A DNA stretch of 64,000 nucleotides from Ruminococcus sp. (GTDB lineage: Bacteria; Bacillota; Clostridia; Oscillospirales; Ruminococcaceae). The DNA lies in contig JAFSSS010000081.1 in assembly GCA_017450925.1 (NCBI GenBank), forward strand, positions 18,090-82,089, read 5' to 3'. The notes beneath the pieces were generated by a model that was not told the DNA's origin, made no database searches, and saw nothing but the letters and a program-made list of their open reading frames with translations. Positions 3,648-21,617 of this stretch are shown here, piece by piece. Numbering within the stretch: position 1 is the stretch's first letter; each line of letters opens with the position of its first letter. The position numbers and the translations under genes were made by a program.

Positions 3648-3676
3648 TTGACATTTATAATACAACGGGTTATAAT
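3648..3676 (+). promoter_or_regulatory. Sigma-A promoter of the second ECF pair
   Basis: Perfect TTGACA-N17-TATAAT. Confidence 0.8.
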
Positions 3677-3728: not shown

Positions 3729-3735
3729 GGGGCAG

Positions 3736-4251
3736 GTGAGAGCAGTGAGCAGGTTCAAGGAAATATACGAGGAGACAAAGCTGCCGGTGCTGAAATACAT
3801 ATCCTCGAAGTGTCTGAAAATAACCGACATCGAGGAGCTGTTTCAGGAGACCTATCTGCAGGTGGGCGAGGCGCTGGACAAGGGCGCTGACCCCCGTGAG
3901 CCGGAGGCCTTTGTCATCGGCATTGCCAAGCACTGTCTGTCTCACCACTATACCGCCGTTCAGCGGCTGAAAGCGCGCATCAGCCTTAGCGGCGGCAGCA
4001 GCGGAGAGCCTGTGGATATCCCGGACAGCACCGACATTGAGGAACTCACGGCAGATAAGGCACTTTTCGATGAAGTCTTCCGGGAGATAACGGCTCTCCC
4101 CTCCGATGTGCAGAGGATGTTCTATCTTCACTATTTCTTAGAGCTTAGCCTTGAGGAGACTGCATCCCTTATGGGCGTATCCGAAAGCCGTGTCAGACAG
4201 CGGCTCTATCAAGCAGTCAGAAGGCTAAGGCGAAAATACAGAGGGAGGTAA
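3736..4251 (+). CDS. ECF-type sigma-70 family sigma factor, paralogue of 144..689
   Basis: DIEELFQETYL, LSLEETASLMGVSESRVRQRLY; collinear similarity to the first sigma (KCL.I.DI, EA.VI.IAK, P.DVQR). Confidence 0.9.
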   Translation: MRAVSRFKEIYEETKLPVLKYISSKCLKITDIEELFQETYLQVGEALDKGADPREPEAFVIGIAKHCLSHHYTAVQRLKARISLSGGSSGEPVDIPDSTDIEELTADKALFDEVFREITALPSDVQRMFYLHYFLELSLEETASLMGVSESRVRQRLYQAVRRLRRKYRGR

Positions 4252-4256
4252 CAGCT

Positions 4257-5635: not shown

Positions 5636-6721
5636 ATGAAGAGTTTAAGACTGCTGCCGGTCATCACGGCGGTACTGATAGCGGCGGGCTGCGGCAGCGG
5701 CGAGTCGTCCATAACCGTGGTGAACACTGACAGCGAGGGGAATATCATTTCATCATCGGTGGTGGATACTGATGCTATGCCGCAGACAGTTACCGAGCCG
5801 CCTGCCGAGACCTCTGCTGCGGCCGAAACCTCGTCAGTTTCCGAAACTGCGGTTTCAAGCGAAGAAATCCCCGACAGCAGCCCTACGGAACAGGTCTTCA
5901 GCCTGTCAGCCGCTCTGAACGCGCTTGACAGCATCGGCAGCGACAGCACTCCCACGGCTTTCGGGAGCGCTTTATCAGTGCCGGAGGCTCTTAACGAACA
6001 GGTCTCCGCACTCACGTCAGCGGGACACAAGGTCTCCTTTGCAATGCTTGATCTGAACACCCTCTCCGGCATTAGCTGTAACAGCGGGTCGGGGATGTGT
6101 ACGCAGAGCGTTATAAAGGCCGCCTATATCGGCTCTCTTGCGGAAAGCGACCCCTCGGTGCTTACCTCTGAATACGAGGATATCCACGACGCTGTTGCCT
6201 ATTCCGACAACTACTCCTATATGTATCTCCGGGATAAATACGGCACCGACAGCCTGCGCAAATGGTGCGCCGAGACCGGCGTTTCACAGAGCATTGCAGA
6301 CAGCGAATACCCGGTGATGTCGGCATCGGATATGCTCCGGCTGTGGGTGAGGCTTTACAGCTTTATAAGCTCGGACGATACCGGCGCGAAGCTCGGGAAG
6401 CTCCTTGAGGCATCTGTCGGCTCGGCAGGACGGCAGCTTTTCATGGGGCAATATACTGTTCAGAGCAAATCCGGCTGGGAGTGCGGTCAAGGTGACGAGA
6501 TAAGCTACGACCCCGATGCCTCCATAGCAGAGACCCTTACCGACGGCGACCCCTTCAATGACGAATGCGCCGCCAACGATGCCGGCATCGTCTATACCGA
6601 AAACGGCACTTATATCTATGTTATCTTCACAGATATCCCCTTTGGGGTGTTTGAGGAAAACACGCCGGCGAACCCTCTGACCGGCCTGCTCTCGGAAATA
6701 AACAATGCACGTTCCCGCTGA
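5636..6721 (+). CDS. Lipoprotein serine hydrolase, class A beta-lactamase/PBP fold
   Basis: Lipobox AAGC, Ser/Thr/Glu linker, motifs SVIK (SxxK), SDN, KSG. Confidence 0.8.
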   Translation: MKSLRLLPVITAVLIAAGCGSGESSITVVNTDSEGNIISSSVVDTDAMPQTVTEPPAETSAAAETSSVSETAVSSEEIPDSSPTEQVFSLSAALNALDSIGSDSTPTAFGSALSVPEALNEQVSALTSAGHKVSFAMLDLNTLSGISCNSGSGMCTQSVIKAAYIGSLAESDPSVLTSEYEDIHDAVAYSDNYSYMYLRDKYGTDSLRKWCAETGVSQSIADSEYPVMSASDMLRLWVRLYSFISSDDTGAKLGKLLEASVGSAGRQLFMGQYTVQSKSGWECGQGDEISYDPDASIAETLTDGDPFNDECAANDAGIVYTENGTYIYVIFTDIPFGVFEENTPANPLTGLLSEINNARSR

Positions 6722-6740
6722 AAGCGAGAGCGTGCATTAT

Positions 6741-7478
6741 TCACTTTATGATCTCCTCGTACTTTGCCGAGACCTCGTCAATGTCTCCGCAGGCGATAAG
6801 CTTGCCCTTTTCAAGGATTATTGCCTTATTGCAGAGCCTGCGCACCTGCGCCAGCGAGTGGGACACGAACAGCACCGTCACACCGGCATCAAACATACCC
6901 ATTACCTTGGCCTCGGACTTCTTCTTGAACTTGGCATCTCCCACCGAAAGCACCTCGTCAAGTATCAGTATATCCGGCTCCACCTGCGTGGCTATGGAAA
7001 AGCCCAGTCGGGAACGCATTCCCGAGGAGTAGTTCTTGATAGGCACGTCGATGAACTCCTCCAGCTCGGCGAACTTCACGATCTCGTCAAACCGCTCCTG
7101 CACGAACTGCTTTGAATAGCCCAGCACCGAGCCGTAGAGGTAGATGTTCTCTCTGCCGGTGTACTGCGAATCAAAGCCGGCACCCAGCTCCAGCAGGGGA
7201 ACGAGCTTTCCGTGGCGTATTACATTTCCCTCTGTGGGCTTGAACACTCCGGCAATGACCTTCAGAAGCGTACTCTTGCCGGCGCCGTTGAGCCCGAGGA
7301 TACCTACACGGTCGCCCTTTTCCACCTTGAAGCTGACATTTTTCAGCGCCCAGAATTCGTTGTATTGTATCTGCCGCTTGAGGAACTTTATCACATATTC
7401 CTTGAGGCTGTCAACCTTTTCCTTGCTTAGGTTGAATTTCATGGAAACGTCGTTGACTTCGATAGCATATTTTGGCAT
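6741..7478 (-). CDS. tagH: Teichoic acid/polysaccharide ABC exporter ATPase (TagH/Wzt type)
   Basis: Walker A GLNGAGKST, signature YSSGM, LILDE. Confidence 0.9.
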   Translation of the reverse strand: MPKYAIEVNDVSMKFNLSKEKVDSLKEYVIKFLKRQIQYNEFWALKNVSFKVEKGDRVGILGLNGAGKSTLLKVIAGVFKPTEGNVIRHGKLVPLLELGAGFDSQYTGRENIYLYGSVLGYSKQFVQERFDEIVKFAELEEFIDVPIKNYSSGMRSRLGFSIATQVEPDILILDEVLSVGDAKFKKKSEAKVMGMFDAGVTVLFVSHSLAQVRRLCNKAIILEKGKLIACGDIDEVSAKYEEIIK

Positions 7479-7493
7479 ACGATCTTCCTTTCG

Positions 7494-8276
7494 TTATATG
7501 TGAAGAATGAAGTTATCCTGCTTCCACTTGAACAGGCCGAAGCCGATGACAAGGGTCACCAGTGAAGCGCAGAGAGGCATTATCACCCAGTAGGGGTCGG
7601 TGAACATCGAGCTTCCATAGACCGCGTCCCGGAAGATCTTGATAACGGAATAGACCGGGTTTATCCGCAGTATCCAGTCAACACCGTTTTTGAAGAGCCT
7701 TTCGGTGTCGTAGAATATAGCGCAGGTGTACATTATAAGCATCAGCGCCACATCCCAAAGGTATTCGGCATCCCGGAAGAATACCGAAACGGTCGAGAGT
7801 ATCATCCCCACTCCGAGAGTGAACATGAACAGTATGATAAGCGGGATCACCGCCGTCAGCGTCCACCAGTTAGGATAAACTCCCAGCACTATTGAAACGC
7901 CTACCAACACGATCAGCGAGATCAAGAAGATGATGAAGTTATACATAACGCTGGAAAGGGGATAGATGTATTTCGGCACATAGACCTTTTTTATCATTCC
8001 CGCGTGTGACCGTATGGACTTCATAGCCACCTTTGTGCCGTTGGAGAAGAAGCTGTAGAGCAAACGTCCCGTCAGTACATATACCGGGAAAGCCCTGTCC
8101 TTTCTGCCGTAGAAGGTCGAGAACACAAGCGTCAGCACCATCATTGTCAGCAAAGGCTCCAGCAGCGTCCATATTATCCCGAGATAGCTTCGCCTGTATT
8201 TCAGCTTGATGCCCTTTTTAACTAGCTCTCTAAGCAAGAACCTGTATTTTTTAAAGCTTTCGATATATTTTGTCAT
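7494..8276 (-). CDS. tagG: Teichoic acid/polysaccharide ABC exporter permease (TagG/Wzm type)
   Basis: KYRRSYLGIIWTLLEP motif, multiple TMs, adjacent ATPase. Confidence 0.9.
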   Translation of the reverse strand: MTKYIESFKKYRFLLRELVKKGIKLKYRRSYLGIIWTLLEPLLTMMVLTLVFSTFYGRKDRAFPVYVLTGRLLYSFFSNGTKVAMKSIRSHAGMIKKVYVPKYIYPLSSVMYNFIIFLISLIVLVGVSIVLGVYPNWWTLTAVIPLIILFMFTLGVGMILSTVSVFFRDAEYLWDVALMLIMYTCAIFYDTERLFKNGVDWILRINPVYSVIKIFRDAVYGSSMFTDPYWVIMPLCASLVTLVIGFGLFKWKQDNFILHI

Positions 8277-10243
8277 TTCATTCCTGCCTTTCGGTCTGCC
8301 GGAAGTGAGCAGATCAGTTCAACAGCCTCGGCCTTGTATTTTTCATACAGCCCCTTGTCTGCCGGCGGGATATCGAAAACACTGCTGTCAGCGATAAGCT
8401 TTCCGGCGGGAGCTTCGGGAGCATATCCGGAATAGAACGTTCCCACGGCGGGGCCGGCAGTAAGCAGCAGCTCGTCAGCGGCAGAGCCGCCGGAGCGTGC
8501 ATCTGCGCCAAGGAGCGCGGCTGCCGTTTCAAGACCCGAGCCGCCCTCGTAGGGATAAACGAACCTGCCGCACTCCTTCATAAGCAGCAGAGGTATCTCT
8601 CTTCCGGGCAGCACCGTTATCCTGTCATCCGAAAGCCTTGCAGCGTCAGCCTCTCCGTCCGTCAGTACGCAGAGGTACATTCTTGCCGAGGGCTTGTCGG
8701 CAGCGTATTCATTGAAAAGCTCGCAGAGCGTTCCTGCATCCTCCATATCCCTTGCGATGCAGAGGGTGTTCTCGCAGCTTTTGTCGAGCATCGGGATCAG
8801 CCTGCAGCCCACCGGGGCAGCCGGTGAGGGAAGCAGCGCTAAGAGCCTGCGTTCTCCGTCGCTGAAAACAAGAGGCTCGGGTCTTTCGTCGGCAGCGGTC
8901 TCCCAGCCGCTCCAGAGAGCAGCGGGCATTTTGCCGCTGTGGGCAAGCTTCACCCCGCCGCCCTTGAACAGCAGCGTTCTGTCATAGGTGTGGTTTATAA
9001 GGTCGGTGAGCATAGCCGGGTCGGGATAATCCTCCAGCAGCTCTCTTTCGCTCGGAGCCGCAAATATCCGCAGCGGAGCGTTCATGCTTGCTGCAAACCT
9101 GTGGCGGAAAGGGTTCACTGTATTGAACACGATCACCGCATCAAAGCTGTCGCTTCCGAGGGAGCGCAGCACCTCGTATTTCCAGATCGTTTTCTCGCTG
9201 ACCTCGTCCGTATCGGCAGCCTGCATTTCCATGTCAGCGGCGGAGAAGGTGTAATCATCCTTTTGGATGATCCTTGTTCCGCTGCCAAATCCGCTGCAGA
9301 AGCCGGAGCTTGAGGTGGCAAAGGCAAACACAGTCACGCTGTATTTTTCCTTGTCGATAAGGTCGCAGAAATTCCTAAGAGCGTGATTATAGCTTGTTGA
9401 CAAGCCCAAATAGGCCGTTACGGCGATCCTCGGTTTCTCGGAGCGGGGATATTCCACATAGCTCCCCTCGCCGAAGAACAAAGCGCCGATGATGCTTTCA
9501 AGGGATGTCTTTCTGTCCGGCACCTCACCGGGGATCGGATTCAGCGGCTTTTCTTCGGCAGCCTTCTCCTCGGAGGGGGCGTATCTTGACATAAGCTCCG
9601 CGATCCTCTCCGGGGAGTATTTCGCGCTGCTTTCAGCAGGAGCCTCCTCGGTGACGGCAGGCTCCGCGCCGTAAAAGGCCGGCTCTGCCGCACGGATAAG
9701 CCTGCCCGTATAGAAGCTGTCAAGAAACAGCTTGCTGTTCATTAGTTCCATTACGTTTTCATTTGCACAGAGCATCAAGTCAGTCATGGGAACAAGGCGT
9801 GAAAGCTCCTTGAATATTCTCGCCCGATAATTGCCTTTTTCGTCCTCGTCAAAGAGAAGCCTGTTTTGGTTGAAGAGGCAAAGATGCTTCTGACCTGCCG
9901 GCCGGATATAATACAGCGGCAGCCGCCCGTCAGAGATAAGATATCTCGCCTTGGCCAGTGCCTTTATATATTCGTCGGAGTCAAATGCAGTAAACCGAAT
10001 ATCAAGCTCGGAAAAGCTTTCCTTAAAGTCCTTGAATCTGTCGCCGAAATTAGGCACCGCCACAATGTGGGTGAACCTATCTGCAAAGCCCGAGGCAGCT
10101 ATCTCTCTGAAAAGGAGTTCAACGTTCCCCTTGCCTGAGAGCATATTCCTCGCTGAATAGAAAATAGTCCTGTCCTCTGTCCTTCCCTGCATAGAGGAAT
10201 TGAACAGGCAGACCCGGTGCAGCTTTTTTTCTTCGTTTGTCAT
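8273..10243 (-). CDS. Degenerate CDP-glycerol glycerophosphotransferase/GT-B-like protein
   Basis: KALAKARYLISD aligns with KLLAKAKYLITD of 16514..18883, but the WHGTPLK motif is replaced by LFNQNRL. Confidence 0.6.
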   Translation of the reverse strand: MTNEEKKLHRVCLFNSSMQGRTEDRTIFYSARNMLSGKGNVELLFREIAASGFADRFTHIVAVPNFGDRFKDFKESFSELDIRFTAFDSDEYIKALAKARYLISDGRLPLYYIRPAGQKHLCLFNQNRLLFDEDEKGNYRARIFKELSRLVPMTDLMLCANENVMELMNSKLFLDSFYTGRLIRAAEPAFYGAEPAVTEEAPAESSAKYSPERIAELMSRYAPSEEKAAEEKPLNPIPGEVPDRKTSLESIIGALFFGEGSYVEYPRSEKPRIAVTAYLGLSTSYNHALRNFCDLIDKEKYSVTVFAFATSSSGFCSGFGSGTRIIQKDDYTFSAADMEMQAADTDEVSEKTIWKYEVLRSLGSDSFDAVIVFNTVNPFRHRFAASMNAPLRIFAAPSERELLEDYPDPAMLTDLINHTYDRTLLFKGGGVKLAHSGKMPAALWSGWETAADERPEPLVFSDGERRLLALLPSPAAPVGCRLIPMLDKSCENTLCIARDMEDAGTLCELFNEYAADKPSARMYLCVLTDGEADAARLSDDRITVLPGREIPLLLMKECGRFVYPYEGGSGLETAAALLGADARSGGSAADELLLTAGPAVGTFYSGYAPEAPAGKLIADSSVFDIPPADKGLYEKYKAEAVELICSLPADRKAGMK

Positions 10244-10752
10244 CCTTCTGCACCGTTCCTTTCCGCACCGCCGGATATTGCTGACAGAGCAGCCTCAAGC
10301 TCCTCGCCGCTGCAGCCGATTATCAGCACGGCTTTATCCGAGCCTCCTGCGCGGCTAAGCTTATAGAATGCTCCCGAGTCGCTGTCGGGGACCGACAGCA
10401 CAAAGCTGCTGTATCTCTCTGCGGTTTCAGCGGCCTCGTCAGAGCAGATCACGCAGACATCCTTGACCTGTTCGGTTACAGCTGTCCTGCGGATCCTTTC
10501 CGCGAACAGCTCATCCACATGGAAGCAGGCATATATCTCCGCGCCCTCCTGCTGCAGCTTGGCAACGGCCTTGACGACCGCTTTCAGACAGCTGTCAGAA
10601 CCGTTTTTCGCTGAAACGAGCAGCTGCGTTCCGCTGCTGTGGACTGCGACAGCCTCATCCACCCGGACGGAGCCACCCGCATCCTGCGCACTTGTTATAA
10701 TATAGCGGACATCATCCCGTCCGCTGACAGTCAGTTCCTTAATCATCATCAT
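10240..10752 (-). CDS. Hypothetical protein, possibly a degenerate GT4 C-terminal domain
   Basis: Overlaps both neighbouring genes in the operon; LKAVVKAVAKL...IYACFHVD...IRRTAVTEQVKDVCVIC weakly resembles a GT-B C-lobe. Confidence 0.5.
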   Translation of the reverse strand: MMMIKELTVSGRDDVRYIITSAQDAGGSVRVDEAVAVHSSGTQLLVSAKNGSDSCLKAVVKAVAKLQQEGAEIYACFHVDELFAERIRRTAVTEQVKDVCVICSDEAAETAERYSSFVLSVPDSDSGAFYKLSRAGGSDKAVLIIGCSGEELEAALSAISGGAERNGAEG

Positions 10753-11968
10753 ATCCCTTTATCACGATCGGTTCAAGATGCTCCTGCGGGATCATTTCTC
10801 TGATCTCGTCAGCAAGAGCGGCGTTTCCCTCGCGTCTGATAACATCCAGCATACAGCCCAGAATATCCGGGTCAAAGCAAAGTCCCAGACCGAGCCTGTA
10901 GTTCTTCATAAGCTTTTCACGGTAGGGCGCTAAGGCTGCCGAAAGCTCGTCATACCGCCCCTCCCGCTGCATTGCAAGCAGCTCCTTTTTTATGGGAGCA
11001 TACTGCTCGTAGAGTTCAAAGCGGTCGCCGGTCCGGAAAAGAAGATCCCAGTAGTGCTTGATGATATCCACCTTAGACTGACCCTCACGCTGCTTGCGGA
11101 TATATCTTTCCCTGTCGGCGATATACCTTTTCAGCGGCAGACCCGCCTCGGCGATCTCTTTCAGATAATCCTTATAGGGTATCTCTGTATCAGCTATGAT
11201 ATATTCTGTCATCTTTCTTCCCGGCAGCCTGTGGTTCATATACCCCTTGCCGTAGAGCGAGACAAAATACTCCTTTGCCGGCACCGGGAAGCTGTGTCCC
11301 TCAAGTGTAGTCATGACCGGCTCTTCAAACCAGCTTTTCTGAAAATGGTGACGGGCTGTCCTAAAACACTTGGAGAAGCATCTTTCTGCGCCGGGGTTGT
11401 TATAGACGGTGCAGAACTCCTCGAACATTTTCCGGGTGAACTCAAGGCTGCTCTCGGGAGTTTTCAGCTTGGGTCTTACAAGCCTCTCGCAAAGCTCATA
11501 TTTCTTGGACTCGGCTCTTGCTCCCTCGGCAAAGGTCATCTCAAAGCCTATCTCCTTTGCGGTGACAAGCTTGGATCTTACCCGGCTCGCCGGGAAGTCC
11601 CTAAGAACATTTATCCTTACCGCAAAGCCGTATTTTCTGTAGTGGTGATAGTTGGGCAGGTCGAGGAAAAGCGTGTCCTCGTTTACATATCTGCATCCGA
11701 AGTCACCGTAGCCGGCTTCGTTCCGCCAGCTTTCCAGTGAACGGTGCGGCGGTTTTTCCTTTTTAAAGCAGCTCATGAATTTCAGCATATCCGGAACGCT
11801 CATCAGCACCTCTGCGATCATGCGCTCCTCGCCCATGTGGTTATGCTGTACAGCTTCAAGAGCCGTGTTTTCATGCAGGAAGTATGTAATGCCGTACTTT
11901 TTGCAGATCGCATCCACCTCTGTCAGCAGTGTGAAGAGAGTCTTCTGTATTTCAGTCATTCTGTTCAC
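10739..11968 (-). CDS. LicD-fold protein lacking the catalytic motif
   Basis: N-terminus QKTLFTLLTEVDAICKKYGITYFL matches LicD, but GGTxLGA...PWDDD is replaced by HENTALEA...EERMIAEV. Confidence 0.7.
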   Translation of the reverse strand: MNRMTEIQKTLFTLLTEVDAICKKYGITYFLHENTALEAVQHNHMGEERMIAEVLMSVPDMLKFMSCFKKEKPPHRSLESWRNEAGYGDFGCRYVNEDTLFLDLPNYHHYRKYGFAVRINVLRDFPASRVRSKLVTAKEIGFEMTFAEGARAESKKYELCERLVRPKLKTPESSLEFTRKMFEEFCTVYNNPGAERCFSKCFRTARHHFQKSWFEEPVMTTLEGHSFPVPAKEYFVSLYGKGYMNHRLPGRKMTEYIIADTEIPYKDYLKEIAEAGLPLKRYIADRERYIRKQREGQSKVDIIKHYWDLLFRTGDRFELYEQYAPIKKELLAMQREGRYDELSAALAPYREKLMKNYRLGLGLCFDPDILGCMLDVIRREGNAALADEIREMIPQEHLEPIVIKGYDDD

Positions 11969-11975
11969 ACTCCTC

Positions 11976-13613
11976 TTACAGCAGCGGTGCGTCTTTTACG
12001 ACCTGCTCATCTACGCCGAGTGAGAGCAGCTTCTTGCGCATCTCGTTGAGAATAATACCGTTGCGTGTATTTGCTCTTGCAGTCAGATAGGCGGCCACGG
12101 CCTCTTCCTCGTGACCCAGCTTCAGCAGGGCATCGCCCTTGAGCTTCATAAGCTCGCCGTCGCCGGGGTGTCTGTCTATCTGCTTTTGAGCATCATTTAC
12201 GATATCGTAAAGTGCTTTGTTGTCTCCGGCCTTGCGGATGCGTGCCAAAAGGTCACAGCGAATAAGGTCGATGACATCGGGATACTGCCCGAACCACATC
12301 CCGCAGATGCGTTCGGCCTCGGCTATATCCTTGTGATCGTATATAGCGATCGAGATATTTCTCACCGCGTTCATCAGCGATTCTGCCTCGAGGATATCCT
12401 CCCCCGGCTCACGGTTGAAGCGGTATATTTTAAGTATCTTTCTTGCTTGATGATATTTCCCTTCGGTGATAAGCAGCATAAGCGCGGTATAGATGATCTC
12501 GTCATCCACGTCGATGAATATCTGCCACTTGTTGAAATCTCCCGAAAGCTGTGCAGCGAGATATCTTCCGAGGGCAGTTCTAAGCTCTCTGTATCTTCTC
12601 TGACGGAGCAGTCCCTTCAAGTCGATGCCCTCAAGCTCCCGCTGTATGCGCATCCTGTGCTTTACTGCCAGCATCCGCAGACGGTTCTGATTATTCTTTT
12701 CCCTGTCGTAGAGTATCTCGACTCTGTCCTTCTTGTACTCCCAGTAATCCGCCAAAGCCTTTTCCTTGTCCATGAAGAGCAGATAGTCGTCGATATAGTT
12801 CACATAGCTAAGTGTCAGGCTGTGCAGCGAGGTATGTGTTTCCTGCTCCTGCACCTCGGGGATGTACATCCATGTGTCGCCGTAGGCCTCTCTGAAAATG
12901 CCCTCGGCACAGCTGCCCACAGGCACCAGTACGTCCTCGAACTGTTCAAGGCGGGGAGTGCCGTAGTTCTTTCTTTCGTACATCAGTATGCGAAGTCCCC
13001 ACCTTAGGCAGTAGTAATCGCATTCCTCGTCGGTATCGCTGTAGGAGAAGATCTTGTCCTCGAGAAGCCCCAGAACATAGGCTCTGCCTTTTTCCTCCAT
13101 AAGATCAAGGTAGTATCTGTAGGTGTCATAGTCAAAGTCGGAATCCTTATTGACTACCTGTCTGTTGACCACGAAATAGGAGGTCAGCAGCTCGGTATAT
13201 ACAAGCATGAGCCTCCTGAATTCCTTATACTTTTCGGGATCTTTCGGAACGGGATCCATTACCATGAATTCAACGTGCTGACCGCAGGCGGCGCCAGCCA
13301 GCGCCTGAGAGCGGTAGATCGTGGTGGTGTTCTTATCCACATACCGCAGTATCGGGTTGCGGTACAGCTCGTTGCGGTCGGTTGAGGCATAGCCGCGGTC
13401 CGGCCTGATCTCGCTGTCGATGACCTTCTCTAATTTCTTCCAGTTCTCACGGGTGATATAGAGATCCATATCATCGTCCCACGGCAGAAAGCCGTTATTG
13501 CGGACAGCGCCCAGCGCCGTTCCGCCTGCGAGATAATATGTTATATCATGCTTTTTGCAGATAGCGTCGATCTCCTTGAGCAATTTAAGCAGATTTTTCT
13601 GAACAGGAGTCAA
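11976..13613 (-). CDS. LicD-family phosphotransferase with a C-terminal helical/TPR-like region
   Basis: YYLAGGTALGAVRNNGFLPWDDDMDL; TTG start after GGAGGAGG. Confidence 0.88.
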   Translation of the reverse strand: MTPVQKNLLKLLKEIDAICKKHDITYYLAGGTALGAVRNNGFLPWDDDMDLYITRENWKKLEKVIDSEIRPDRGYASTDRNELYRNPILRYVDKNTTTIYRSQALAGAACGQHVEFMVMDPVPKDPEKYKEFRRLMLVYTELLTSYFVVNRQVVNKDSDFDYDTYRYYLDLMEEKGRAYVLGLLEDKIFSYSDTDEECDYYCLRWGLRILMYERKNYGTPRLEQFEDVLVPVGSCAEGIFREAYGDTWMYIPEVQEQETHTSLHSLTLSYVNYIDDYLLFMDKEKALADYWEYKKDRVEILYDREKNNQNRLRMLAVKHRMRIQRELEGIDLKGLLRQRRYRELRTALGRYLAAQLSGDFNKWQIFIDVDDEIIYTALMLLITEGKYHQARKILKIYRFNREPGEDILEAESLMNAVRNISIAIYDHKDIAEAERICGMWFGQYPDVIDLIRCDLLARIRKAGDNKALYDIVNDAQKQIDRHPGDGELMKLKGDALLKLGHEEEAVAAYLTARANTRNGIILNEMRKKLLSLGVDEQVVKDAPLL

Positions 13614-13710
13614 CCTCTCCTCCTCCTTTTTTGTTCACGCTGCGCGCCACTTTGGGACGCTTGGATTTGTTTCGTGCTGTGATTGATGTACCGCGTCGCG
13701 GACGGCGGAC

Positions 13711-14667
13711 TTATACCCAGAATTTATCTGTCGGGGGATCAAGGCTGATCTCGGTGCCTGCATTTCCGCACATCTCGTAAACCCGGTTCGCAAAGTTCAT
13801 GTCGTGCATGGAAAGCCCAACGTTGTAGGCAATGATCCTTTCGCTGTCGTTCTCTCTGCCCTTAGCCCTGCCGGTGATGACCTCGGCCACCTCGGCGTGA
13901 TACTTCCACTTGTCATAATACTTGAAGCCCCTAACGTGAGCATCGTCATCACAGAACACCTTGTCAAAGGCCAGATCGCAGCCGAGGAAGCCTCTTAGAT
14001 GCACCGCATCCACCAGCACGCCCTCCTTGAAGCAGTCAGCAGAGCAGAAATCGTCGTCAGTGTAGGTAACAGCCGAAATGATAACGTCACTGCCTCTTAC
14101 TACATCCTCGTAGCTGTCAACATATACGAATTCGGCATTGGGATAGTTCTTTCCGTCCTCGCCCTTGAAATATCTTGTGTAAAGCTCGTGCTGATCCTTG
14201 TACTTCAGCACCTTGATCTTCAGCGGACGCTCGGGATACATAGCCAGCAGCACCTTCATGGCAGCTCTGCCGGTGTTTCCCAGACCCATAACGCCTATCT
14301 CGTAAAAATCCTTGACTGCCAGCGTCTTAATGGTGTGTGCCGCAACTGCACCCGTGCGCATGGTGGTTATCCAGTTACCGTCCATGATCGCCTTTGGGGT
14401 GCCGGTCTCGTAGTCATAAAGCACGATCTGACTGTCAAGCGAGGGAACACGTCCCAAGTGGCGTGTGATGACCTTTACTCCGCCTGCATCGAACTGCGGC
14501 AGCAGACAGGGCATGACGTTGAAGAACGCATCGTTCTCCAGATGCAGGCTTATCTTCGCCGGCAATATCGCATCGTTTTTGTGCATGAGCATTTCCTCGA
14601 CCCATTCATAGCACTTTACGGGCGAGATGTTGAGCTTTTTGATGTCGTTGAATGTGATGACCTTCAT
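13711..14667 (-). CDS. Ornithine cyclodeaminase/mu-crystallin family NAD(P)-dependent enzyme
   Basis: GVKVITR, MDGNWITTMRTGA, Rossmann GVMGLGNTG, NVGLSMHD. Confidence 0.85.
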   Translation of the reverse strand: MKVITFNDIKKLNISPVKCYEWVEEMLMHKNDAILPAKISLHLENDAFFNVMPCLLPQFDAGGVKVITRHLGRVPSLDSQIVLYDYETGTPKAIMDGNWITTMRTGAVAAHTIKTLAVKDFYEIGVMGLGNTGRAAMKVLLAMYPERPLKIKVLKYKDQHELYTRYFKGEDGKNYPNAEFVYVDSYEDVVRGSDVIISAVTYTDDDFCSADCFKEGVLVDAVHLRGFLGCDLAFDKVFCDDDAHVRGFKYYDKWKYHAEVAEVITGRAKGRENDSERIIAYNVGLSMHDMNFANRVYEMCGNAGTEISLDPPTDKFWV

Positions 14668-14683
14668 ATCCGTTGACCTCCGT

Positions 14684-15745
14684 TTATTTCAGAACTTTCT
14701 TGAACAGATCTATAAGCATGATGTTGTCCTCAACAGTGTGATTGCCGAGGTGACCTACCCTAATAACGGTCTTTGCCAGATCGCCGCCGTTGGGAGTTAC
14801 AAAAACATCATATTCCTTTTTCAGCGTTTCATAGACCTCATAAGCGTTCCCGTCGGGGAAGAAGAGGGGAGTTACTGCATTTGAAAGCGGATAATCCGGC
14901 AGCGTAAGACCTGTGCCGTTAAGCCTTGCGCGGAAGTCGGCAGCGACCTCCTTCATGTGAGCCAGCTTGTTTTCAAGTCCGATCTCATCCACATATCTGA
15001 GCATATCCTGCAGCTCATATATAAGCCTTACCGCAGGGGTGAAGGGTGTCTGACCCCGCTTGCCGTTTTCAATGTGGCTGTTGAAATCAAGATACATGGT
15101 AACGGGCTTTCTGTCCCTTACCCTCTGCTCGTACATCCTGCTGCTCAAAAGGACCACCGAAAGCCCCGGAGCCAGTGCCAGTGATTTCTGTGAGGAGAAG
15201 ATCATAGCGTCGATGCCGAGCGCCTCCATGTCGAGCGGGTCGGCAAGGAACGAGCTGATAGCATCCACAACGAACACCATGCCGTTTCTTTTGCAGAACT
15301 CCGAGAGCATCTGAGCATCATAGAGCTGACCGGTAGAGGTCTCGTCAATATTTACGAGCAGGCCTGTATAGCCTTTGCCGTCAAACTCATATACCATTTC
15401 TTTGGTCAGCGCCTTGCCGTAGGGTACCTTCACGGCATCGTAGGGAACACCGTGGATGTCGCATATCTGTGTGAATCTGTGACCGAAGGATCCGCCGTCT
15501 ATCACAAGCAGTCTGTCACTGCTGTCAAAGCAGTTGAGGACGGTGGCCTCCATAGCGCCGGTGCCGGAACAGGTGAGGAATACGGTCTTTGCACCCTCGC
15601 CGGCGTGAGCGAACTTTTCAAGCAGCCTTTCACATTCCAGCACGACCTCGGAAAACTCGGGCGTTCTGAAATAAGGCACCTGTTTTTTTGCGATCTCGAA
15701 TGTCCTGTCATACATTTCAACAGGACCCAGTGTAAACAGTTTCAT
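14684..15745 (-). CDS. PLP-dependent class V aminotransferase-fold enzyme
   Basis: LFTLGPV, SGTGAME, ETSTG, VVDAISS, SSQK (PLP lysine), QTPFTP. Confidence 0.88.
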   Translation of the reverse strand: MKLFTLGPVEMYDRTFEIAKKQVPYFRTPEFSEVVLECERLLEKFAHAGEGAKTVFLTCSGTGAMEATVLNCFDSSDRLLVIDGGSFGHRFTQICDIHGVPYDAVKVPYGKALTKEMVYEFDGKGYTGLLVNIDETSTGQLYDAQMLSEFCKRNGMVFVVDAISSFLADPLDMEALGIDAMIFSSQKSLALAPGLSVVLLSSRMYEQRVRDRKPVTMYLDFNSHIENGKRGQTPFTPAVRLIYELQDMLRYVDEIGLENKLAHMKEVAADFRARLNGTGLTLPDYPLSNAVTPLFFPDGNAYEVYETLKKEYDVFVTPNGGDLAKTVIRVGHLGNHTVEDNIMLIDLFKKVLK

Positions 15746-15781
15746 ATCATATCTACTCCCTTTGTAAATTATGGGCTGCTG

Positions 15782-16498
15782 TCAGCCCTCTGTCTTTTCC
15801 GTCTGATCTATGTAGTTGAGTATCCTCTGATAGTCGTCAAAATAGTCGATCTCCGACCAGAACATACCGTCCACGTCAAGGGTGTGGATGCGGCGGTTAT
15901 CTGCCAGTGTGTAGAGTACCTCCTCCCACCAGCAGCCGTGCTTCTGCTCGTCGATAAGCTTGTCCAGCTGCTTGCGGAACACAGGCACAAAGCTCTTTCT
16001 TATTTTGGCAAGCCCCACATATTCGCAGTCACGCTCCTCAAGGGGAATGTCCTTGCCGTACTTTTTGACGCAGTTGTTCTTGCCGAGTGCAAAGAAGTAA
16101 TCGCCGGTCGCTGTACGGGATTTGTCGCTGGCAAGAATGACCGGCCTTTCGTCAGCCAGAAGTTTGTGAAGAATGTCGGTAGAGAAGAACACGTCCGCAT
16201 TCATGACGATCAGATCGTCGTCAAGCTCATCTCTTGCGAACCACAGCGATGCGATGCTGTTCGTTACATCATAAAACGGGTTGTAAAAGAACTTCACGGG
16301 AAGCCCCTCCAGCGCCTCATACACCTTTTCGTACTTGTAGCCCACGCATACGATAGGTTCGATGCCCTCTGCGATCATCATTTCAACTGTCCGCCTTATA
16401 AGGGGCTTGTCCCCGATAGGCAGGGTGCTTTTCGGGATCTCCTGTATCCTCTTGGATATCCTTGTTCCGCGGCCTGCCGCCAAAAGTACAGCTTTCAT
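15782..16498 (-). CDS. LicC-like phospho-alcohol cytidylyltransferase (NTP transferase)
   Basis: LLAAGRGTR, PK, NPFYDVTNSIASL, WSEIDYFDD. Confidence 0.85.
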   Translation of the reverse strand: MKAVLLAAGRGTRISKRIQEIPKSTLPIGDKPLIRRTVEMMIAEGIEPIVCVGYKYEKVYEALEGLPVKFFYNPFYDVTNSIASLWFARDELDDDLIVMNADVFFSTDILHKLLADERPVILASDKSRTATGDYFFALGKNNCVKKYGKDIPLEERDCEYVGLAKIRKSFVPVFRKQLDKLIDEQKHGCWWEEVLYTLADNRRIHTLDVDGMFWSEIDYFDDYQRILNYIDQTEKTEG

Positions 16499-16513: not shown

Positions 16514-18883
16514 TCAGCCGTCAAGCAGCTGTTCAAACTGCGCGACTGCGTTTTTATTGTATTGTTCATAATCAACATTCATTGCCTTGACCTCGCCGCG
16601 CATAAAGGCCTCCATGCCCTCATATATGCCCTCGGCGCTGCAGGGAACCATATATCCGCCGCGCTTTTCAAGAAAGCTCCGGGGCCCCGGTATGTCGGTG
16701 GAGATCAGCGGTACTCCCAGCGTGTCAGCCTCCAGCATTGTCAGCCCCATCGCCTCATAGCGTGAGGAAAGCACGAACAGATCGCACCTTTTCAGCACCG
16801 GCATCGGATTGAACATGGTCTTTATCAGTATGATCTTATCCCTCGCAGGCGAGCTCTCGGCCAGTGCCTTTGTGGATTCATACAGCTTGCCGTAGCCGCC
16901 GATTATTATAAGCCGGCTGTCCGGGTGAGCGGCTGCAAATCTGCCATATGCCTCTATCAGCATATCATGACCCTTTTCTGCGGAAAAGCGCCCGATGTTT
17001 ATGATCTTCACCGTATTGCTGTCAAGCACCCTGTTCAGCTCTTCAAGGGTCACATTTGAGCGGGTAACGTCATCGAACTGTACATCCCTATCCGCTCTTG
17101 CAAGAACGTGCTTATAGGCGTGGCAGTTATAGACGATCCTGATGTTGTCCGTCCTGCCGCTGATCTCGCTTGTCGGCTTTATCATGCCCTCGGTAACAGC
17201 CGCAACATTTGTATAGGTGTTGTAGGCAGTTTTCAGCGAGAGTCTGTGCTGATTGTTCTTGGTGGCAAGCTCCTGCACCATATCGCTGTGAACGAATATC
17301 GTTGAGGGGCAGTCGAACATTCTGAACAGATGTATCATATTCTTGCCGTAGCCTTGATACTGAACGATGTGGTCAAAGTCGATCCCGTAGAAGAATTTCC
17401 TTGCCTCGCGGCGGCACATTTTCTCAACGCTTTTGAAAGCGAGCTTTAGGTTCAGCTTGTAGAACAGCACCTGTGCCAAGGCCTCGGTCACGGTGTACTG
17501 CGGCTTTGTACTCATGGGAAACACATTTATATCCCGCGGTATAAGATTGCACCGAAGCGGATCCTTCCGCAGGGTAGGCTGCTGGAACGTGATGAAATAC
17601 CGCCGCTTTGAGGCATCAAGGTTCTCGATCAGATTAAGCGCCGCAGTGGTGATGCCGTTCTTGGAAAGGTCTCCCGTAAAGATCAGCACATTCTGCTTTG
17701 AGCTGTCGTATATCCGTTCCTCGCTGCAGACCCTTTCGCCGTCGATGACCCGTTTGAGGATGCACTCTGCCGCCTCCGGCCTTTCATAGGTGCAGCATTC
17801 CTTGATGAACTGCGTGTCGTCGTAATCCTTCGGGCTGCGCATTTCAGCCACAAGCTCCGGGACTGTACGCACCTTGGGGAAGGGAAGCTCCTCCAGCGAA
17901 ACATACATCCCTCTCTCGGCGATATAATCCTCCTCGTCATAAGCAAAGAGAATGATCTTCTTCCGGGTGTTGGCAAAATCGTAGAACACGCTGGAATAGT
18001 CGGTGATAAGCCCGTCCGCGCTGTTGAGGACATCGTAGGGATCAAAGCCCTCCTTCATGGGGACGATGTGCTTATACTGCGAGTAATCCAGATCGGCGCT
18101 CATAAAGGGATGCAGCTTTGCGATGACGATCTCGCTGTCATCAAGGCTTTCGTCAAGCTGTGCAAGATATCCCTTGAGTATGCCCAGCTGATCCTCGGTC
18201 TTTATCCTTGCAAGGTTGCCCCGCCAGGTGGGCATATATACGAACATCCTTTTGTCTGCAAGCCCCAAAGCCTCTCTGGTCTTTGCAGCCCTTTCGGTAT
18301 CAAAGAAAACACAGTTGCGGGGATAGCCCTCGTTGAGGATAGTTCCCTTGTAAACGCCCTCCAGCATAAAGGCGCTCACCATTTTTTCCTTCATGTAGTC
18401 GTTGGGATAGAGCAGGAAATCCGCAAAAAGCAGATTTCGCTGTATGTTTCCCATAGCATATACATCGCTGGCAACGTCGCGCCCCATTACCTTGAGCGGA
18501 GTCCCGTGCCAGGTGTTGAGTATCACCTGTCCCTCCTTCTTGATGTATCTTGTCGTGAACGAGGTATCGGTGATAAGGTATTTAGCTTTAGCCAGCAGCT
18601 TGAAATACTTGGCGCTCATTATCCTTACGGGGGTGACGTTCTTCACTCCGTACTGATTTAGCAGACCGAGTATCCTTTCCTTCTGCTTCTTGGCATAGAC
18701 CAGATATATCTTGAACCTGCTGCTGTAATCCCTGTCCAGAAGCTTGAGCAGCGTGAAGATGTTCCCGGCCAGATCGGCGCCGTGCTTCGATTCCAGCAGG
18801 ATGCAGCTGCTGTCGAGCTTTGCATGATAATACTTTCTCACATAATATGTATTGGCAAGGGCATCCGCAGCGCATTGCTTCAA
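16514..18883 (-). CDS. CDP-glycerol glycerophosphotransferase (TagF-like) fused to a GT4 glycosyltransferase
   Basis: NTWHGTPLK, GYPRN, YMPTWR, KLHP, ITDYSS; C-terminal GRFSAEKG and SRYEAMGLTMLEA. Confidence 0.88.
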   Translation of the reverse strand: MKQCAADALANTYYVRKYYHAKLDSSCILLESKHGADLAGNIFTLLKLLDRDYSSRFKIYLVYAKKQKERILGLLNQYGVKNVTPVRIMSAKYFKLLAKAKYLITDTSFTTRYIKKEGQVILNTWHGTPLKVMGRDVASDVYAMGNIQRNLLFADFLLYPNDYMKEKMVSAFMLEGVYKGTILNEGYPRNCVFFDTERAAKTREALGLADKRMFVYMPTWRGNLARIKTEDQLGILKGYLAQLDESLDDSEIVIAKLHPFMSADLDYSQYKHIVPMKEGFDPYDVLNSADGLITDYSSVFYDFANTRKKIILFAYDEEDYIAERGMYVSLEELPFPKVRTVPELVAEMRSPKDYDDTQFIKECCTYERPEAAECILKRVIDGERVCSEERIYDSSKQNVLIFTGDLSKNGITTAALNLIENLDASKRRYFITFQQPTLRKDPLRCNLIPRDINVFPMSTKPQYTVTEALAQVLFYKLNLKLAFKSVEKMCRREARKFFYGIDFDHIVQYQGYGKNMIHLFRMFDCPSTIFVHSDMVQELATKNNQHRLSLKTAYNTYTNVAAVTEGMIKPTSEISGRTDNIRIVYNCHAYKHVLARADRDVQFDDVTRSNVTLEELNRVLDSNTVKIINIGRFSAEKGHDMLIEAYGRFAAAHPDSRLIIIGGYGKLYESTKALAESSPARDKIILIKTMFNPMPVLKRCDLFVLSSRYEAMGLTMLEADTLGVPLISTDIPGPRSFLEKRGGYMVPCSAEGIYEGMEAFMRGEVKAMNVDYEQYNKNAVAQFEQLLDG

Positions 18884-18893: not shown

Positions 18894-19310
18894 TTAATCT
18901 TTTTTCCCTCCGGTCATGACTGACATTTTCAAGTCGCTTTTGATCTGCGTGGTTGAGATCTCGGGAGTCCTCGGCAGATAAACTACCTCGCAAAGCTCCG
19001 CAAGCTCGTCGAACTTGCCCTTCCAGTCATCTCCCATGACAAAGGTATCCACTCTGAATTCCTTGATGTCAGATCTCTTCTGCTCCCAGTTTTCCTCCGG
19101 TATCACCAGATCCACATATCTGATAGCCTCCAGCAGGCTCTTTCTTTCTTCATAGGAGAAGTAGCATTTTTTATGCTTTTCGTTCCAGTTGAATTCATCC
19201 GTCGAGAGCGCCACGATCAGATAATCCCCCAGCGCCTTGGCGCGTCTTAGCAGATTTATGTGACCGTAATGCAGCAGATCAAAGGTGCCGTAGGTAATGA
19301 TCTTTTTCAT
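18894..19310 (-). CDS. tagD: Glycerol-3-phosphate cytidylyltransferase
   Basis: ITYGTFDLLHYGH, MGDDW, RTPEISTT. Confidence 0.95.
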   Translation of the reverse strand: MKKIITYGTFDLLHYGHINLLRRAKALGDYLIVALSTDEFNWNEKHKKCYFSYEERKSLLEAIRYVDLVIPEENWEQKRSDIKEFRVDTFVMGDDWKGKFDELAELCEVVYLPRTPEISTTQIKSDLKMSVMTGGKKD

Positions 19311-19327
19311 ATTTCTCTCCTGTTTGT

Positions 19328-20461
19328 TCACATTGTTATCCCGACAGCGTCAAGTATCCTTTTGCAGGCACTGCCGGACTGGCTGCTGTTTGCCAGTTCG
19401 TTTACACGTTTTCTTTCCTCTTTCCAGCCGTCCCTGCCCTTGGCTGCTTTGATGATAAACTCCCGCAGCTGCTCAAAGCTTTTCAGCTTGTCTCCGGGCA
19501 TCAGTGCCTCGGGGTCATCCACCACAAAGCCCCGCTCGTCCTCGTACTGCTCGATATCGCCCAGCGTAAATCCGATAGGCCTGTTCAGCAGCAGATAGTC
19601 AAAATATACCGACGAGTAATCCGTGATAAGAGCGCGGCTGCGCTTCATCAGGTCGTAAATATCCATATTCTTCCGTTCAAGCCCCCGCTGGGTAGTGAGC
19701 ATAATGTTTTCAAGGCTCTTGACCCCGTGGCTGATGTCCTGCATGGGGTGCGGCTTTATCAGCAGCTTGTATCCCAGCTCGCCGAGCAGGCTGTCAATCT
19801 CTCTTAGCTGCTCCTCGGTATCAATAAGCGGAAAGCCGGTCTCGTTTTTGACATCGGCATTTACGCTCCCCAGCTTCTGTGAAGAACGGTAGGTGGGCAG
19901 CCAGAGGATCAGCTTCTTTTCATTCACATCCTTGTCAAAAAGCTTGTCGCACTTCGGCTGACCCGTCAGCAGTACCTTGTCCTCATCCACCTCAAAGCAT
20001 CTCTGCATTATCTGCGAGAAAAAGGGCGAGGTGGCTATGATGTGATCGAAGTAGCATTTTCCGTCAAAGTCCGCACCCTTTTCAAGAGCGCCTATGGTCT
20101 TCAGCGGCATCCCGTGCCAAAGGTTCACCACCTGCTGCTTTGGGCTGGGCTTAATGGGGAATTTCCCGAAGCTGTAAAACATAAAGCTGCACCGCAGGAA
20201 TTTTCTAAGCCCCTTGCCCGTGCTTACGAACTTGACGTTCTCGGGAGCGTCTTTTTTCCAGAAGCGGTAGTCGCTGCAGCTGCAGACGATCTTGTATTTC
20301 TTGTTGTAGCCAAGCTGTATCATATGATCATATATCGCCTTAGCGTTATCTCTGAAGCCGAGATTTGAATAGATTAGCACCAGCCTTTTGTTTTTCGGTA
20401 TTATGCGGTTGAGAGGCGTAAGCGGTGCCGACAGCTTTTTCAGTATCCGTTTTATCCCCAT
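19328..20461 (-). CDS. CDP-glycerol glycerophosphotransferase (TagB/TagF family)
   Basis: NLWHGMPLK, TGQPK, WLPTYR, KPHP, ITDYSS. Confidence 0.88.
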   Translation of the reverse strand: MGIKRILKKLSAPLTPLNRIIPKNKRLVLIYSNLGFRDNAKAIYDHMIQLGYNKKYKIVCSCSDYRFWKKDAPENVKFVSTGKGLRKFLRCSFMFYSFGKFPIKPSPKQQVVNLWHGMPLKTIGALEKGADFDGKCYFDHIIATSPFFSQIMQRCFEVDEDKVLLTGQPKCDKLFDKDVNEKKLILWLPTYRSSQKLGSVNADVKNETGFPLIDTEEQLREIDSLLGELGYKLLIKPHPMQDISHGVKSLENIMLTTQRGLERKNMDIYDLMKRSRALITDYSSVYFDYLLLNRPIGFTLGDIEQYEDERGFVVDDPEALMPGDKLKSFEQLREFIIKAAKGRDGWKEERKRVNELANSSQSGSACKRILDAVGITM

Positions 20462-20467: not shown

Positions 20468-21295
20468 TTATCGTCTCTTCCTTAAAAATGTTTTGTAAAG
20501 CTTTTCTCTTGCCTTTTCGGGCGAAAGCGCAAACACGGTAAAGGCGCTCATCCGTTTCAGATATTCCCCTTTTGAGCAGAAGCCCCTTTGCAGCTTATAC
20601 TGCTCCATTCTTCGGGCGCATTTCAGATAATCCCTGCCGCCGCGGCGCGAATACATCCCGCCGCCCGTTCTCATAAGCAGCAGCGCCTTGGCGATGTTAT
20701 GCCCCCTTGCGCCGTCCGACAGCATCTTCACCCATAGCTGATAGTCCTCAAAGAACCGATAGCTCTCATATCCGCACGCCTTCAGTACAGCCTCTTTTCT
20801 GAACATTACACAGGGGTGGTTGAAGGGATTGCGGGTGCGGGCATATTCAAGTATTTCCTTGTGGGAAACGGGAAGCGTCTTATAAGCCTCGATGACCTTC
20901 GGGTCCTCAATGAATTCAGCCACGGTGGCCGAGCAGATATCCGAGCCGTGCTTGTGCATCGACTTGAGCTGCAGCTCGCATCTTTCCGGCAGAGAGATGT
21001 CATCGGTATCCATTCGTGCGACGTATTCATATCTGCACTCCTTCAGCCCCGCGTTCAGTGCCTCGGCAAGGCCGCGGTTCTCCGGCAGTCTGACAACATC
21101 CACCAGCCCTGCATTGGCCGACTCAAAACGATATACCTCCCGGTCAAGCTCCGCCGTCAGAGGCCCGTCGCATACGAGGACGATCTGCGAGGGCTTAACG
21201 CTTTGCTTTATCATGCTTTCCGCGGCCGTTCTGAAAAAAGCCGGCCGTTCCTTCTGATAGACGGACATAAGCACACAATATTCATTTATAGCCAT
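20468..21295 (-). CDS. GT2 glycosyltransferase (AmsE-like)
   Basis: VLMSVY, LVCDG, ARMDTDD, NPFNHP, FEDY. Confidence 0.88.
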   Translation of the reverse strand: MAINEYCVLMSVYQKERPAFFRTAAESMIKQSVKPSQIVLVCDGPLTAELDREVYRFESANAGLVDVVRLPENRGLAEALNAGLKECRYEYVARMDTDDISLPERCELQLKSMHKHGSDICSATVAEFIEDPKVIEAYKTLPVSHKEILEYARTRNPFNHPCVMFRKEAVLKACGYESYRFFEDYQLWVKMLSDGARGHNIAKALLLMRTGGGMYSRRGGRDYLKCARRMEQYKLQRGFCSKGEYLKRMSAFTVFALSPEKAREKLYKTFLRKRR

Positions 21296-21617
21296 TTTGT
21301 CCGCCTCCCTCAAGTTTTCACATACATTATTTATTATAGCATATCCCGCCTTTTATGTCAAGCAAATAAAGTGCCAATTATACAAATTAAAGCCCGGATT
21401 TCAGTGCATAATGCACAATATGTCAGAGCCTTTCTACAAACAGTTATTCCATGAACCACGGCATTTTATTCTCTCGGTGAAGTTTATTTGTGAACAGCCC
21501 GGTTTTGCGCAGTTTCACTGTGTCGGGAGCGAAAATACAAATAGAACGCCTTTGCTAAATTGTACCTTTTGTATAAAATGACCAACAGTGTGGAAAAATA
21601 TTAGTCTTATATGTGCA

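Follow-up and report, generated by a model that had tools for sequence, protein, structure and literature searches.

The 64,000-nucleotide stretch of Ruminococcus sp. DNA considered here (hereafter the window) contains, on its minus strand, 13 co-oriented genes running from 21313 to 6741 with intergenic gaps of at most 97 bases. Within this operon lies a cassette of five genes that couples a LicC-type enzyme and two LicD proteins to two further enzymes. These encode a MobA/LicC-type cytidylyltransferase of 238 aa (15782..16498; PF12804), a class V pyridoxal phosphate (PLP) enzyme of 353 aa (14684..15745; PF00266, with 3F0H matched at an E-value of 1.6e-110), a 318-aa reductase of the ornithine cyclodeaminase (OCD)/mu-crystallin family (13711..14667; PF02423), a 545-aa LicD whose catalytic motif is intact and whose C-terminal part is TPR-like (LicD1; 11976..13613; PF04991), and a 409-aa LicD-fold protein (LicD2; 10739..11968) that lacks this motif. 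The five genes are separated by 36, 16, 97, and 7 bases, most are preceded by a ribosome-binding site, and their GC content of 50-52% matches that of the remainder of the operon. A first-pass annotation of this DNA had described four contiguous genes; the families and positions that it gave are borne out, but the interval 10739..16498 holds five genes, the second, degenerate LicD having been missed.

The rest of the operon bespeaks a teichoic-acid-like polymer exported by an ABC transporter, with TagD, a TagF-type polymerase, and a TagG/TagH exporter all present. Upstream of the cassette lie a GT2 glycosyltransferase (20468..21313; PF00535), a TagF-type CDP-glycerol glycerophosphotransferase (19328..20461; PF04464, E-value 3e-53), the TagD glycerol-3-phosphate cytidylyltransferase (18894..19331; TIGR01518, 204 bits against a cut-off of 165), and a TagF-GT4 fusion (16514..18883; PF04464 and PF00534) that is likely the polymerase of a glycosyl-glycerol-phosphate chain. 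A putative sigma-70 promoter, recognized by consensus match (12 of 12 positions, with an extended -10), lies on the same strand at 21333..21361 and ends 20 bases upstream of the GT2 gene. Downstream are a 170-aa protein of no known family (10240..10752), for which Pfam and NCBIfam gave no match and an Atlas search no usable match, a divergent TagF-like protein of 656 aa (8273..10243; PF04464 at an E-value of 7e-5 over residues 20-169), the TagG/Wzm ABC-2 permease (7494..8276; PF01061), which a hydropathy scan marks as the sole membrane protein of the operon, and the TagH/Wzt ABC ATPase (6741..7478), whose best NCBIfam matches are TagH models, below cut-off. The 170-aa protein is kept in loci L001-L006 of the neighborhood survey described below, where it and the divergent TagF-like protein follow the LicD pair and have changed far faster than the enzymes (23-70% identity, against 75-98%).

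The first-pass annotation had further noted the lack of a LicA kinase, LicB transporter, PEP mutase, and SbnA-type partner in the locus. Neither choline kinase nor phosphoenolpyruvate (PEP) mutase nor SerC was found in the source genome, which is 66.6% complete, a figure that applies to every source-genome search reported here. Among five close carriers of the cassette, none has PEP mutase or SbnA over cut-off, but one has a choline kinase, located elsewhere in its genome.

The reductase and its genomic neighborhoods

The window reductase displays the fold, the Rossmann motif, and the [R/K]-K-R-D tetrad of the OCD/mu-crystallin superfamily. Its predicted structure (pLDDT 93.8) aligns with 6T3E at a TM score of 0.86, and all four tetrad residues, which hold the 2-oxo acid, are intact (K38, K65, R104, and D289). 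It falls short of the cut-off of every NCBIfam model of the family: PRK07589 (ornithine cyclodeaminase) scores 31.5 bits where 350 are needed, TIGR02371 (archaeal-type alanine dehydrogenase) 92.6 where 409 are needed, and TIGR03944 (SbnB) 84 where 327 are needed. A fold search with the model recovers 6T3E, SbnB, and alanine dehydrogenase at 22-26% identity, and the true OCD 1U7H comes last in strength among 15 profile matches and ranks 23-25 by fold. The residues responsible for cyclization in cyclodeaminases are Glu56, Asp228, and Lys232, and those of alanine dehydrogenase are Arg52, Asp219, and Lys223 (PMC4141209). When aligned via the alanine dehydrogenase of A. fulgidus, the window enzyme has Asn50 at the Glu56/Arg52 position and Arg225 at the Asp228/Asp219 position, and its amine pocket gains R69 and H223. 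Across 84 aligned members, N50 is present in 80, R69 in 82, H223 in 83, and R225 in 81, with the conservation of H223 and R225 in 80 loci owing in part to one of the two search patterns. From the sequence alignment, we read these four residues as a basic pocket suited to a phosphorylated amine. The position of the NAD-specific Asp is occupied by Y156 in the profile alignment, although the single-sequence alignment is ambiguous there, making NADPH the likely cofactor. Judged by its residues, the window enzyme thus belongs to a distinct subfamily with the signature of neither cyclodeaminase nor alanine dehydrogenase, the two activities under which the first-pass annotation would have abandoned its proposal. 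By context and precedent, it is likely an opine-type N-carboxyalkylase.

The closest named relative is Ruminococcaceae FB2012, whose OCD is 96% identical. Within the genus, 7 of 26 other genomes have the gene; a search of 34 further relatives found it in none. Plasmids yielded no close relative (best identity 29%) and predicted viral structures no match at an E-value of 0.001. Two subfamily members (P0276 and P0277), of low complexity and AT-rich in appearance, are extended at the N-terminus by 120 aa that belong to no known family, and the subfamily also occurs in three Saccharibacteria genome bins (L046, L052, and L053), two of them without any partner gene.

A genome scan recovered 255 OCD relatives, and the best 80 loci were surveyed by tblastn. 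A source of amino-alcohol phosphate is encoded in 61 of the 80, in 58 cases within 2 kb; in addition, a cytidylyltransferase is found in 64 and LicD or TagF in 57. The sources comprise three mutually unrelated types: a cytidylyltransferase-CobD fusion (49 loci), a cytidylyltransferase-kinase fusion (8 loci), and the class V enzyme (7 loci). The CobD-type domain finds its best solved match in 6OUX and matches a plasmid gene annotated as serine-O-phosphate decarboxylase at 34% identity, and an amidohydrolase stands alongside the kinase fusion in all 8 of its loci. When only loci with 3 kb on both sides are counted, 52 of 62 have an amino-alcohol source. Two Collinsella loci (L051 and L057) have no PLP enzyme; instead, a gene for an ethanolamine permease (TIGR00908, above cut-off) lies 22-24 bases before the OCD; the whole array there (~6700-14400) consists of the cytidylyltransferase-kinase fusion, the permease, the OCD, an amidohydrolase-3, a second LicC-type enzyme, and a LicD. 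The association is also manifest as gene fusions, namely OCD-LicD (P0257), OCD-LicC type (P0396, the only match of a search for longer proteins), and cytidylyltransferase-class V (P0151). Thus, the co-occurrence with licC and licD on which the first-pass annotation had staked its pathway is indeed found.

As a control independent of score, each family was sought in 398 other genomes of the class (two more went unscored). The fusion was detected in 9, the class V enzyme in 4, and the OCD in 6, with 4 of the 6 OCDs directly adjoining a fusion or class V gene. Of the six fusion genomes without OCD, two have an octopine-type dehydrogenase beside the fusion, one has an ATP-grasp ligase, and three have nothing comparable.

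A few loci depart from this pattern. In L186 (genome G309; 6882-11844), a flagellar glycosylation island contains an OCD with Met in place of R225, flanked by an ATP-grasp ligase and by a probable amino-sugar aminotransferase, an arrangement that is a candidate route to an alanopine-type amide. In L012, L036, L043, L062, L078, and L193, a fusion of a YidC-like domain with a sulfatase-like or TagF-like one is found beside the cassettes, often without LicD, and TagF-like proteins may serve as the transferase in place of LicD. A match in genome G241 that appeared to be a gene broken by three stops was rejected as such, since an intact 298-aa frame is present.

The LicD pair and the source of the amino alcohol

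LicD1 carries the motif GTxLG...WDDDxD, which LicD2 lacks, and the order of a long LicD followed by a motif-less one is kept in L001-L007, L153, and L169. The two are predicted to form a complex with an ipSAE of 0.81, against 0.00 for the best control (of 157 solved complexes, 116 reach this ipSAE mark, as do 2 of 215 mismatched pairs). At least 96% of contacts are shared between the runs, and the partners have pLDDT values of at least 88. These predictions used custom alignments, and a resemblance to homo-oligomers, for example FKRP (the best solved match), can let paralogues pass. With this in mind, we take LicD2 as a predicted subunit partnering LicD1. Both proteins are devoid of membrane helices, and the lack of one in LicD1 suggests that transfer would take place on the cytoplasmic face before export by TagGH.

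The class V enzyme belongs to the subfamily of 3F0H, an uncharacterized Eubacterium rectale protein (TM score 0.98). It is distant from SerC (TIGR01364, 29 bits against a cut-off of 444) and from TIGR03301 (141 bits against 361), and 35 of its 36 listed solved relatives are labelled aminotransferase, the remaining one being a tRNA-ligase fusion. Its neighborhoods were surveyed in 84 loci, of which 4 are from genomes and the others are the 80 best among at least 584 matches in metagenomes. Here, the partner is most often a TagD-like::Gfo fusion (52 loci, and 7 more partial), with the window-type cytidylyltransferase in 12; short LicDs are seen in 43 loci and the OCD in only 2. Other genes that could tailor the amine are an acetyltransferase (8 loci), an ATP-grasp protein (5), a methyltransferase (5), and an octopine-type dehydrogenase (3). 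Hence, the core appears to be the PLP enzyme, cytidylyltransferase, and LicD, with the OCD as one optional tailoring step. The four families of the first-pass pathway are therefore real, but one of them is dispensable, being absent from 82 of the 84 class V loci. Partner types switch at least 4-6 times on a quick tree of the class V enzymes, for which the careful search is unfinished, and in one Bacteroides locus the class V enzyme is paired with a stand-alone TagD-like gene. The Gfo domain has degenerate motifs in 49 full-length copies. On these grounds, and because the window has no Gfo domain, a route in which CDP-glycerol is oxidized and then aminated was rejected for the window.

The best solved matches of the cytidylyltransferase are the PntC-AEPT protein 6PD1 and LicC (1JYK), and its metal ligands D102, E217, and D219 are intact. 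At the position of its Asn100, PntC has Glu104 and LicC has Asp105 (PMC6697681). Asn is found there in all 12 surveyed window-type cytidylyltransferases and in P0151, against Glu in the 12 CobD fusions shown. The OCDs linked to class V enzymes likewise form a lineage of their own, with the residues F49 and L224 (support 99 for the L224 lineage), in a tree of 12 partner-labelled sequences, 4 of them labelled via length match alone, and 20 unlabelled ones chosen for L224, with P0029 (T224, likewise labelled by a length match) left out. The idea that F49/L224 arose twice in conjunction with class V was rejected, as L086 joins the same lineage, albeit weakly.

In Campylobacter jejuni, Cj1436 and Cj1437 provide precedent for both ethanolamine phosphate from phosphoserine and (S)-serinol phosphate from dihydroxyacetone phosphate (DHAP) (PMC11800397). 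Provided that the proposed pathway holds, we give about an even chance to serinol phosphate, made from DHAP by transamination, on account of the aminotransferase labels, the Asn of the cytidylyltransferase, and the class V-linked OCD lineage. Ethanolamine phosphate, made from phosphoserine by decarboxylation, has roughly a one-in-three claim, for the other partners of OCD converge on it, the pocket is otherwise the same, and there is the methyltransferase match. This match is modest: the best solved hit is phosphoethanolamine N-methyltransferase at an E-value of 3e-12, with 30 bits for the best stretch. Some other amine takes the small remaining share. The methyltransferase, which resembles the plant phosphoethanolamine N-methyltransferase and adjoins the class V enzyme in L090, L091, L098, L110, and L138, raises the possibility of a methylated head group made de novo without choline uptake in those loci.

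Octopine-type dehydrogenases and a poly-G tract

The slot of the OCD is shared by octopine-type dehydrogenase genes (best match 3C7A), and 7 of the 80 OCD loci also carry one. A run of 7-9 G at the GG-V-K (Gly-Gly-Val) codons of the OCD is present in 5 of 6 assessable two-reductase loci but in 1 of 73 others (Fisher p 1.6e-6, although kin are not independent). Among the five (L039, L042, L066, L070, and L072), three have G9 in frame, one has G8 out of frame, and one has G7 in frame with a frameshift near a T7 run just upstream of the tract. They fall on five separate branches, at least three of which are forced by the starred ones. Broken OCDs occur in three of the seven loci with octopine-type genes and in none of the other 73, and a fourth locus has a truncated octopine-type gene. 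Decay through redundancy was considered as the cause, but because two of the three breaks fall at homopolymer tracts, this was replaced by phase variation or assembly error.

The tract of L066 (10191-10199), in frame in the Bullifex isolate, proved polymorphic when contigs from 8 of 20 listed sequencing runs were compared. Contigs of X1, X4, and X7, from three studies, bridge the tract with one base fewer, the sole gap against 11-53 substitutions. A contig of X2 has the same missing base but ends 9 bases from the tract, a short, low-depth contig of X9 across it has a different insertion, and contigs of X3, X6, and X14 do not bridge it. As the short-tract contigs share many substitutions, they may be a single lineage, and contigs cannot show mixed populations. 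With this proviso, phase variation of a surface product is the probable explanation. A tract found in and out of frame fits an on/off modification of the surface better than it does a supply enzyme, and a switchable OCD gene would argue that the OCD alters an exposed structure, with a product unlike that of the octopine-type enzyme, e.g., the opposite epimer.

This invites a wider scheme, which we offer tentatively and rate rather low: in gut and rumen bacteria, two unrelated reductase folds would place carboxyethyl groups of opposite handedness on CDP-activated amino-alcohol heads, with the poly-G tract flipping between the forms, and the window would represent the class V branch, making a hitherto undescribed N-(carboxyethyl)serinol phosphate transferred to a teichoic-acid-like polymer by a heterodimer of LicD and pseudo-LicD.

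A proposed head-group pathway and its alternatives

Taken together, the cassette is, on a judgment somewhat better than even, a kinase-free system in which an amino-alcohol phosphate is CDP-activated, N-carboxyalkylated, and moved to a glycerol-phosphate wall polymer. The amino-alcohol phosphate would come from the class V enzyme and be activated with CTP by the cytidylyltransferase. The OCD-family enzyme would join its amine to a 2-oxo acid and reduce the resulting imine, and transfer of the product onto the polymer would fall to LicD1, with LicD2 as its predicted partner. N-alkylation could come before or after CDP activation, and because FrbH is known to cytidylylate an amino acid (PMC6697681), activation may even precede the PLP step. 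The 2-oxo acid is by a modest preference pyruvate, by analogy with the precedents in the family, and the new stereocenter would probably be (S), with NADPH as the cofactor. This is in essence the pathway of the first-pass annotation, the outline of which is consistent with every comparative test, while the amine, the 2-oxo acid, the order of the steps, the attachment, and indeed every chemical step are ones that we infer.

Parts of this scheme have counterparts in several known systems. The Lic phosphocholine pathway (LicB/LicA/LicC/LicD) shares the activation of an amino-alcohol phosphate with CTP by a PF12804 enzyme and transfer by LicD to a wall glycan (PMC6697681), and the window, like Lic-1, has both a LicC-type cytidylyltransferase and a catalytically intact LicD. 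It differs in the absence of a kinase and transporter from the operon, in the PLP enzyme as the source of the substrate, in the Asn in place of Asp105 of LicC, and in the extra reductase and motif-less LicD. The Pnt tailoring enzymes (PntC-AEPT, Tde1415, 6PD1) and FrbH likewise combine a cytidylyltransferase with a PLP enzyme, which are fused in P0151, beside LicD. In contrast to Pnt, the window has no PEP mutase, which points to a phosphate ester rather than a phosphonate, and the main text of the Pnt paper does not mention an OCD.

The Campylobacter enzymes Cj1436 and Cj1437 are reportedly of class I/II, unlike the class V enzyme of the window. They too supply an amino-alcohol phosphate for a surface glycan, but there Cj1438 links the amine as an amide, which is then dephosphorylated, with no CDP step (PMC11800397). 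For the reductase, the closest counterparts are the tauropine and strombine dehydrogenases, which belong to the OCD family (PMC4141209), and the alkylaminases CpIM1 and mu-crystallin: all share the fold and, using NAD(P)H, condense a 2-oxo acid with a primary amine. CpIM1 alkylaminates pyruvate with NADPH to give (S)-N-alkyl amino acids (PMC8446579), and taurine is a close analogue of ethanolamine phosphate. All of these enzymes differ in being eukaryotic, acting on free amines, and having no glycan role, and the window OCD is at most 26% identical to solved members of the family.

The predicted kind of head group does occur in nature, in a Proteus serogroup said to be O14. The O antigen of Proteus mirabilis bears N-[(R)-1-carboxyethyl]ethanolamine phosphate (PMC9630907), so that the parallel drawn in the first-pass annotation stands as regards the existence of the substituent. 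However, it is the (R) form, whereas CpIM1 gives (S), and it is therefore probably an analogue rather than the same molecule; an octopine-type enzyme would suit it better than the window OCD. A paper on Proteus O-antigen clusters (PMC5560731) assigns no genes to the substituent in its main text, though its supplements may list them. In full-text searches that did not cover most subscription journals, no paper was found that links OCD to LicD or assigns genes for opine phosphates.

Several observations weigh against the carboxyalkylated head group, besides the limits already given for the pocket residues, the short-tract contigs, and the methyltransferase. No solved polymer structure was found for any carrier. 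The aminotransferase labels of the class V relatives disagree on the amine with the other partners of OCD, which point to ethanolamine. Among the well-flanked OCD loci, 10 of 62 have no amino-alcohol source nearby; of the six sampled OCDs, one accompanies an ATP-grasp ligase in an island for flagellar glycosylation that lacks a cytidylyltransferase, and another is at a contig end. As for the tract, only three independent pairs are available, and though all agree they are too few for significance (sign test p 0.25, with L033, L086, and L069 coded as without partner or left out), the window OCD itself has no tract, and L086 has both reductases intact with no internal tract. As both genes are also intact side by side in L039, L042, and L066, the two reductases do not merely stand in for each other, and the octopine-type enzyme could come first, with the OCD acting on its product or at a later point.

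This last point leads to an alternative that we deem unlikely but deserving of attention, namely, that the OCD catalyzes some other redox step of the head-group pathway, either remodelling or inverting an octopine-type opine or aminating phosphohydroxypyruvate or DHAP with ammonia. The four loci with both genes intact speak for it, as do the ammonia-using dehydrogenases within the OCD family (PMC4141209) and the basic pocket, which could equally hold a phosphorylated keto compound. On the other hand, 73 of the 80 OCD loci have no octopine-type gene, five loci that lack a PLP enzyme combine OCD with a kinase route (two of them with the ethanolamine permease), so that amination is unneeded there, and all five carriers own a separate SerC (four over cut-off, one split across contigs). 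The last observation also cost a related idea, OCD as a bypass of SerC, its support.

We regard as improbable a polymer bearing plain amino-alcohol phosphate, with the OCD riding along and the head group untouched. The absence of OCD from 82 of 84 class V loci and from 6 of 9 fusion genomes, together with the 10 orphans just mentioned, would agree with this, but the active-site residues of the OCD are conserved over several phyla, it is fused to LicD and to a LicC-type enzyme, its class V-linked lineage has its own F49/L224, and some of its relatives have the probable poly-G switch. Decidedly improbable is the synthesis of a free opine such as alanopine, amide-linked to the glycan by another enzyme independently of LicD. 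Providencia O antigens do carry (S)-carboxyethyl opines as amides, among them alanopine and carboxyethyl-lysine amides (PMC10609480), and the OCD is paired with an ATP-grasp ligase in L186 and L153. However, no such gene was found in the window operon, in the source genome (by tblastn), or in any of the 80 loci, and the OCDs of both L186 and L153 lack the R225 that the window enzyme keeps.

Highly improbable, too, is a role for the OCD in supplying proline, as an ornithine cyclodeaminase, or in recycling the amino donor for the class V enzyme, as an alanine dehydrogenase. Database names and the need of a transaminase for a donor speak for such a role, and BhcA and BhcD are said to be just such a class V and OCD pair. 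The BhcA/BhcD models match far below cut-off, though, the signature residues are missing, 1U7H is the weakest profile match, and no donor is needed in the 49 of 80 loci that pair OCD with a decarboxylase-type enzyme or in the five with only a kinase. Finally, a phosphonate pathway of aminoethylphosphonate transaminase and PntC can be set aside as barely credible: 6PD1 is the best solved match of the cytidylyltransferase and a good one of the PLP enzyme, but PEP mutase is absent from the source genome and over cut-off in none of the five carriers, the PLP enzyme scores 141 bits where TIGR03301 needs 361, and Glu104 of PntC is Asn.

Elsewhere in the window, the plus strand at 144-5519 encodes two tandem pairs of ECF-type sigma factors and anti-sigma-like proteins, as judged from translations only.

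The enzymes of the proposed window decoration appear in none of the papers found; the system would work like Lic and Pnt and belongs to neither. If the carboxyalkylated head group is real, it would provide a function for three widespread, misannotated families, namely, the OCD subfamily (255 species genomes or more), the class V enzymes of the 3F0H type, and the long LicD pair, as well as candidate genes for opine-phosphate substituents so far known only from glycan chemistry. The polymorphism of the poly-G tract suggests that the head group is under diversifying selection. The walls of gut commensals would then carry a new anionic-zwitterionic head group, with a bearing on phage binding and immune recognition.

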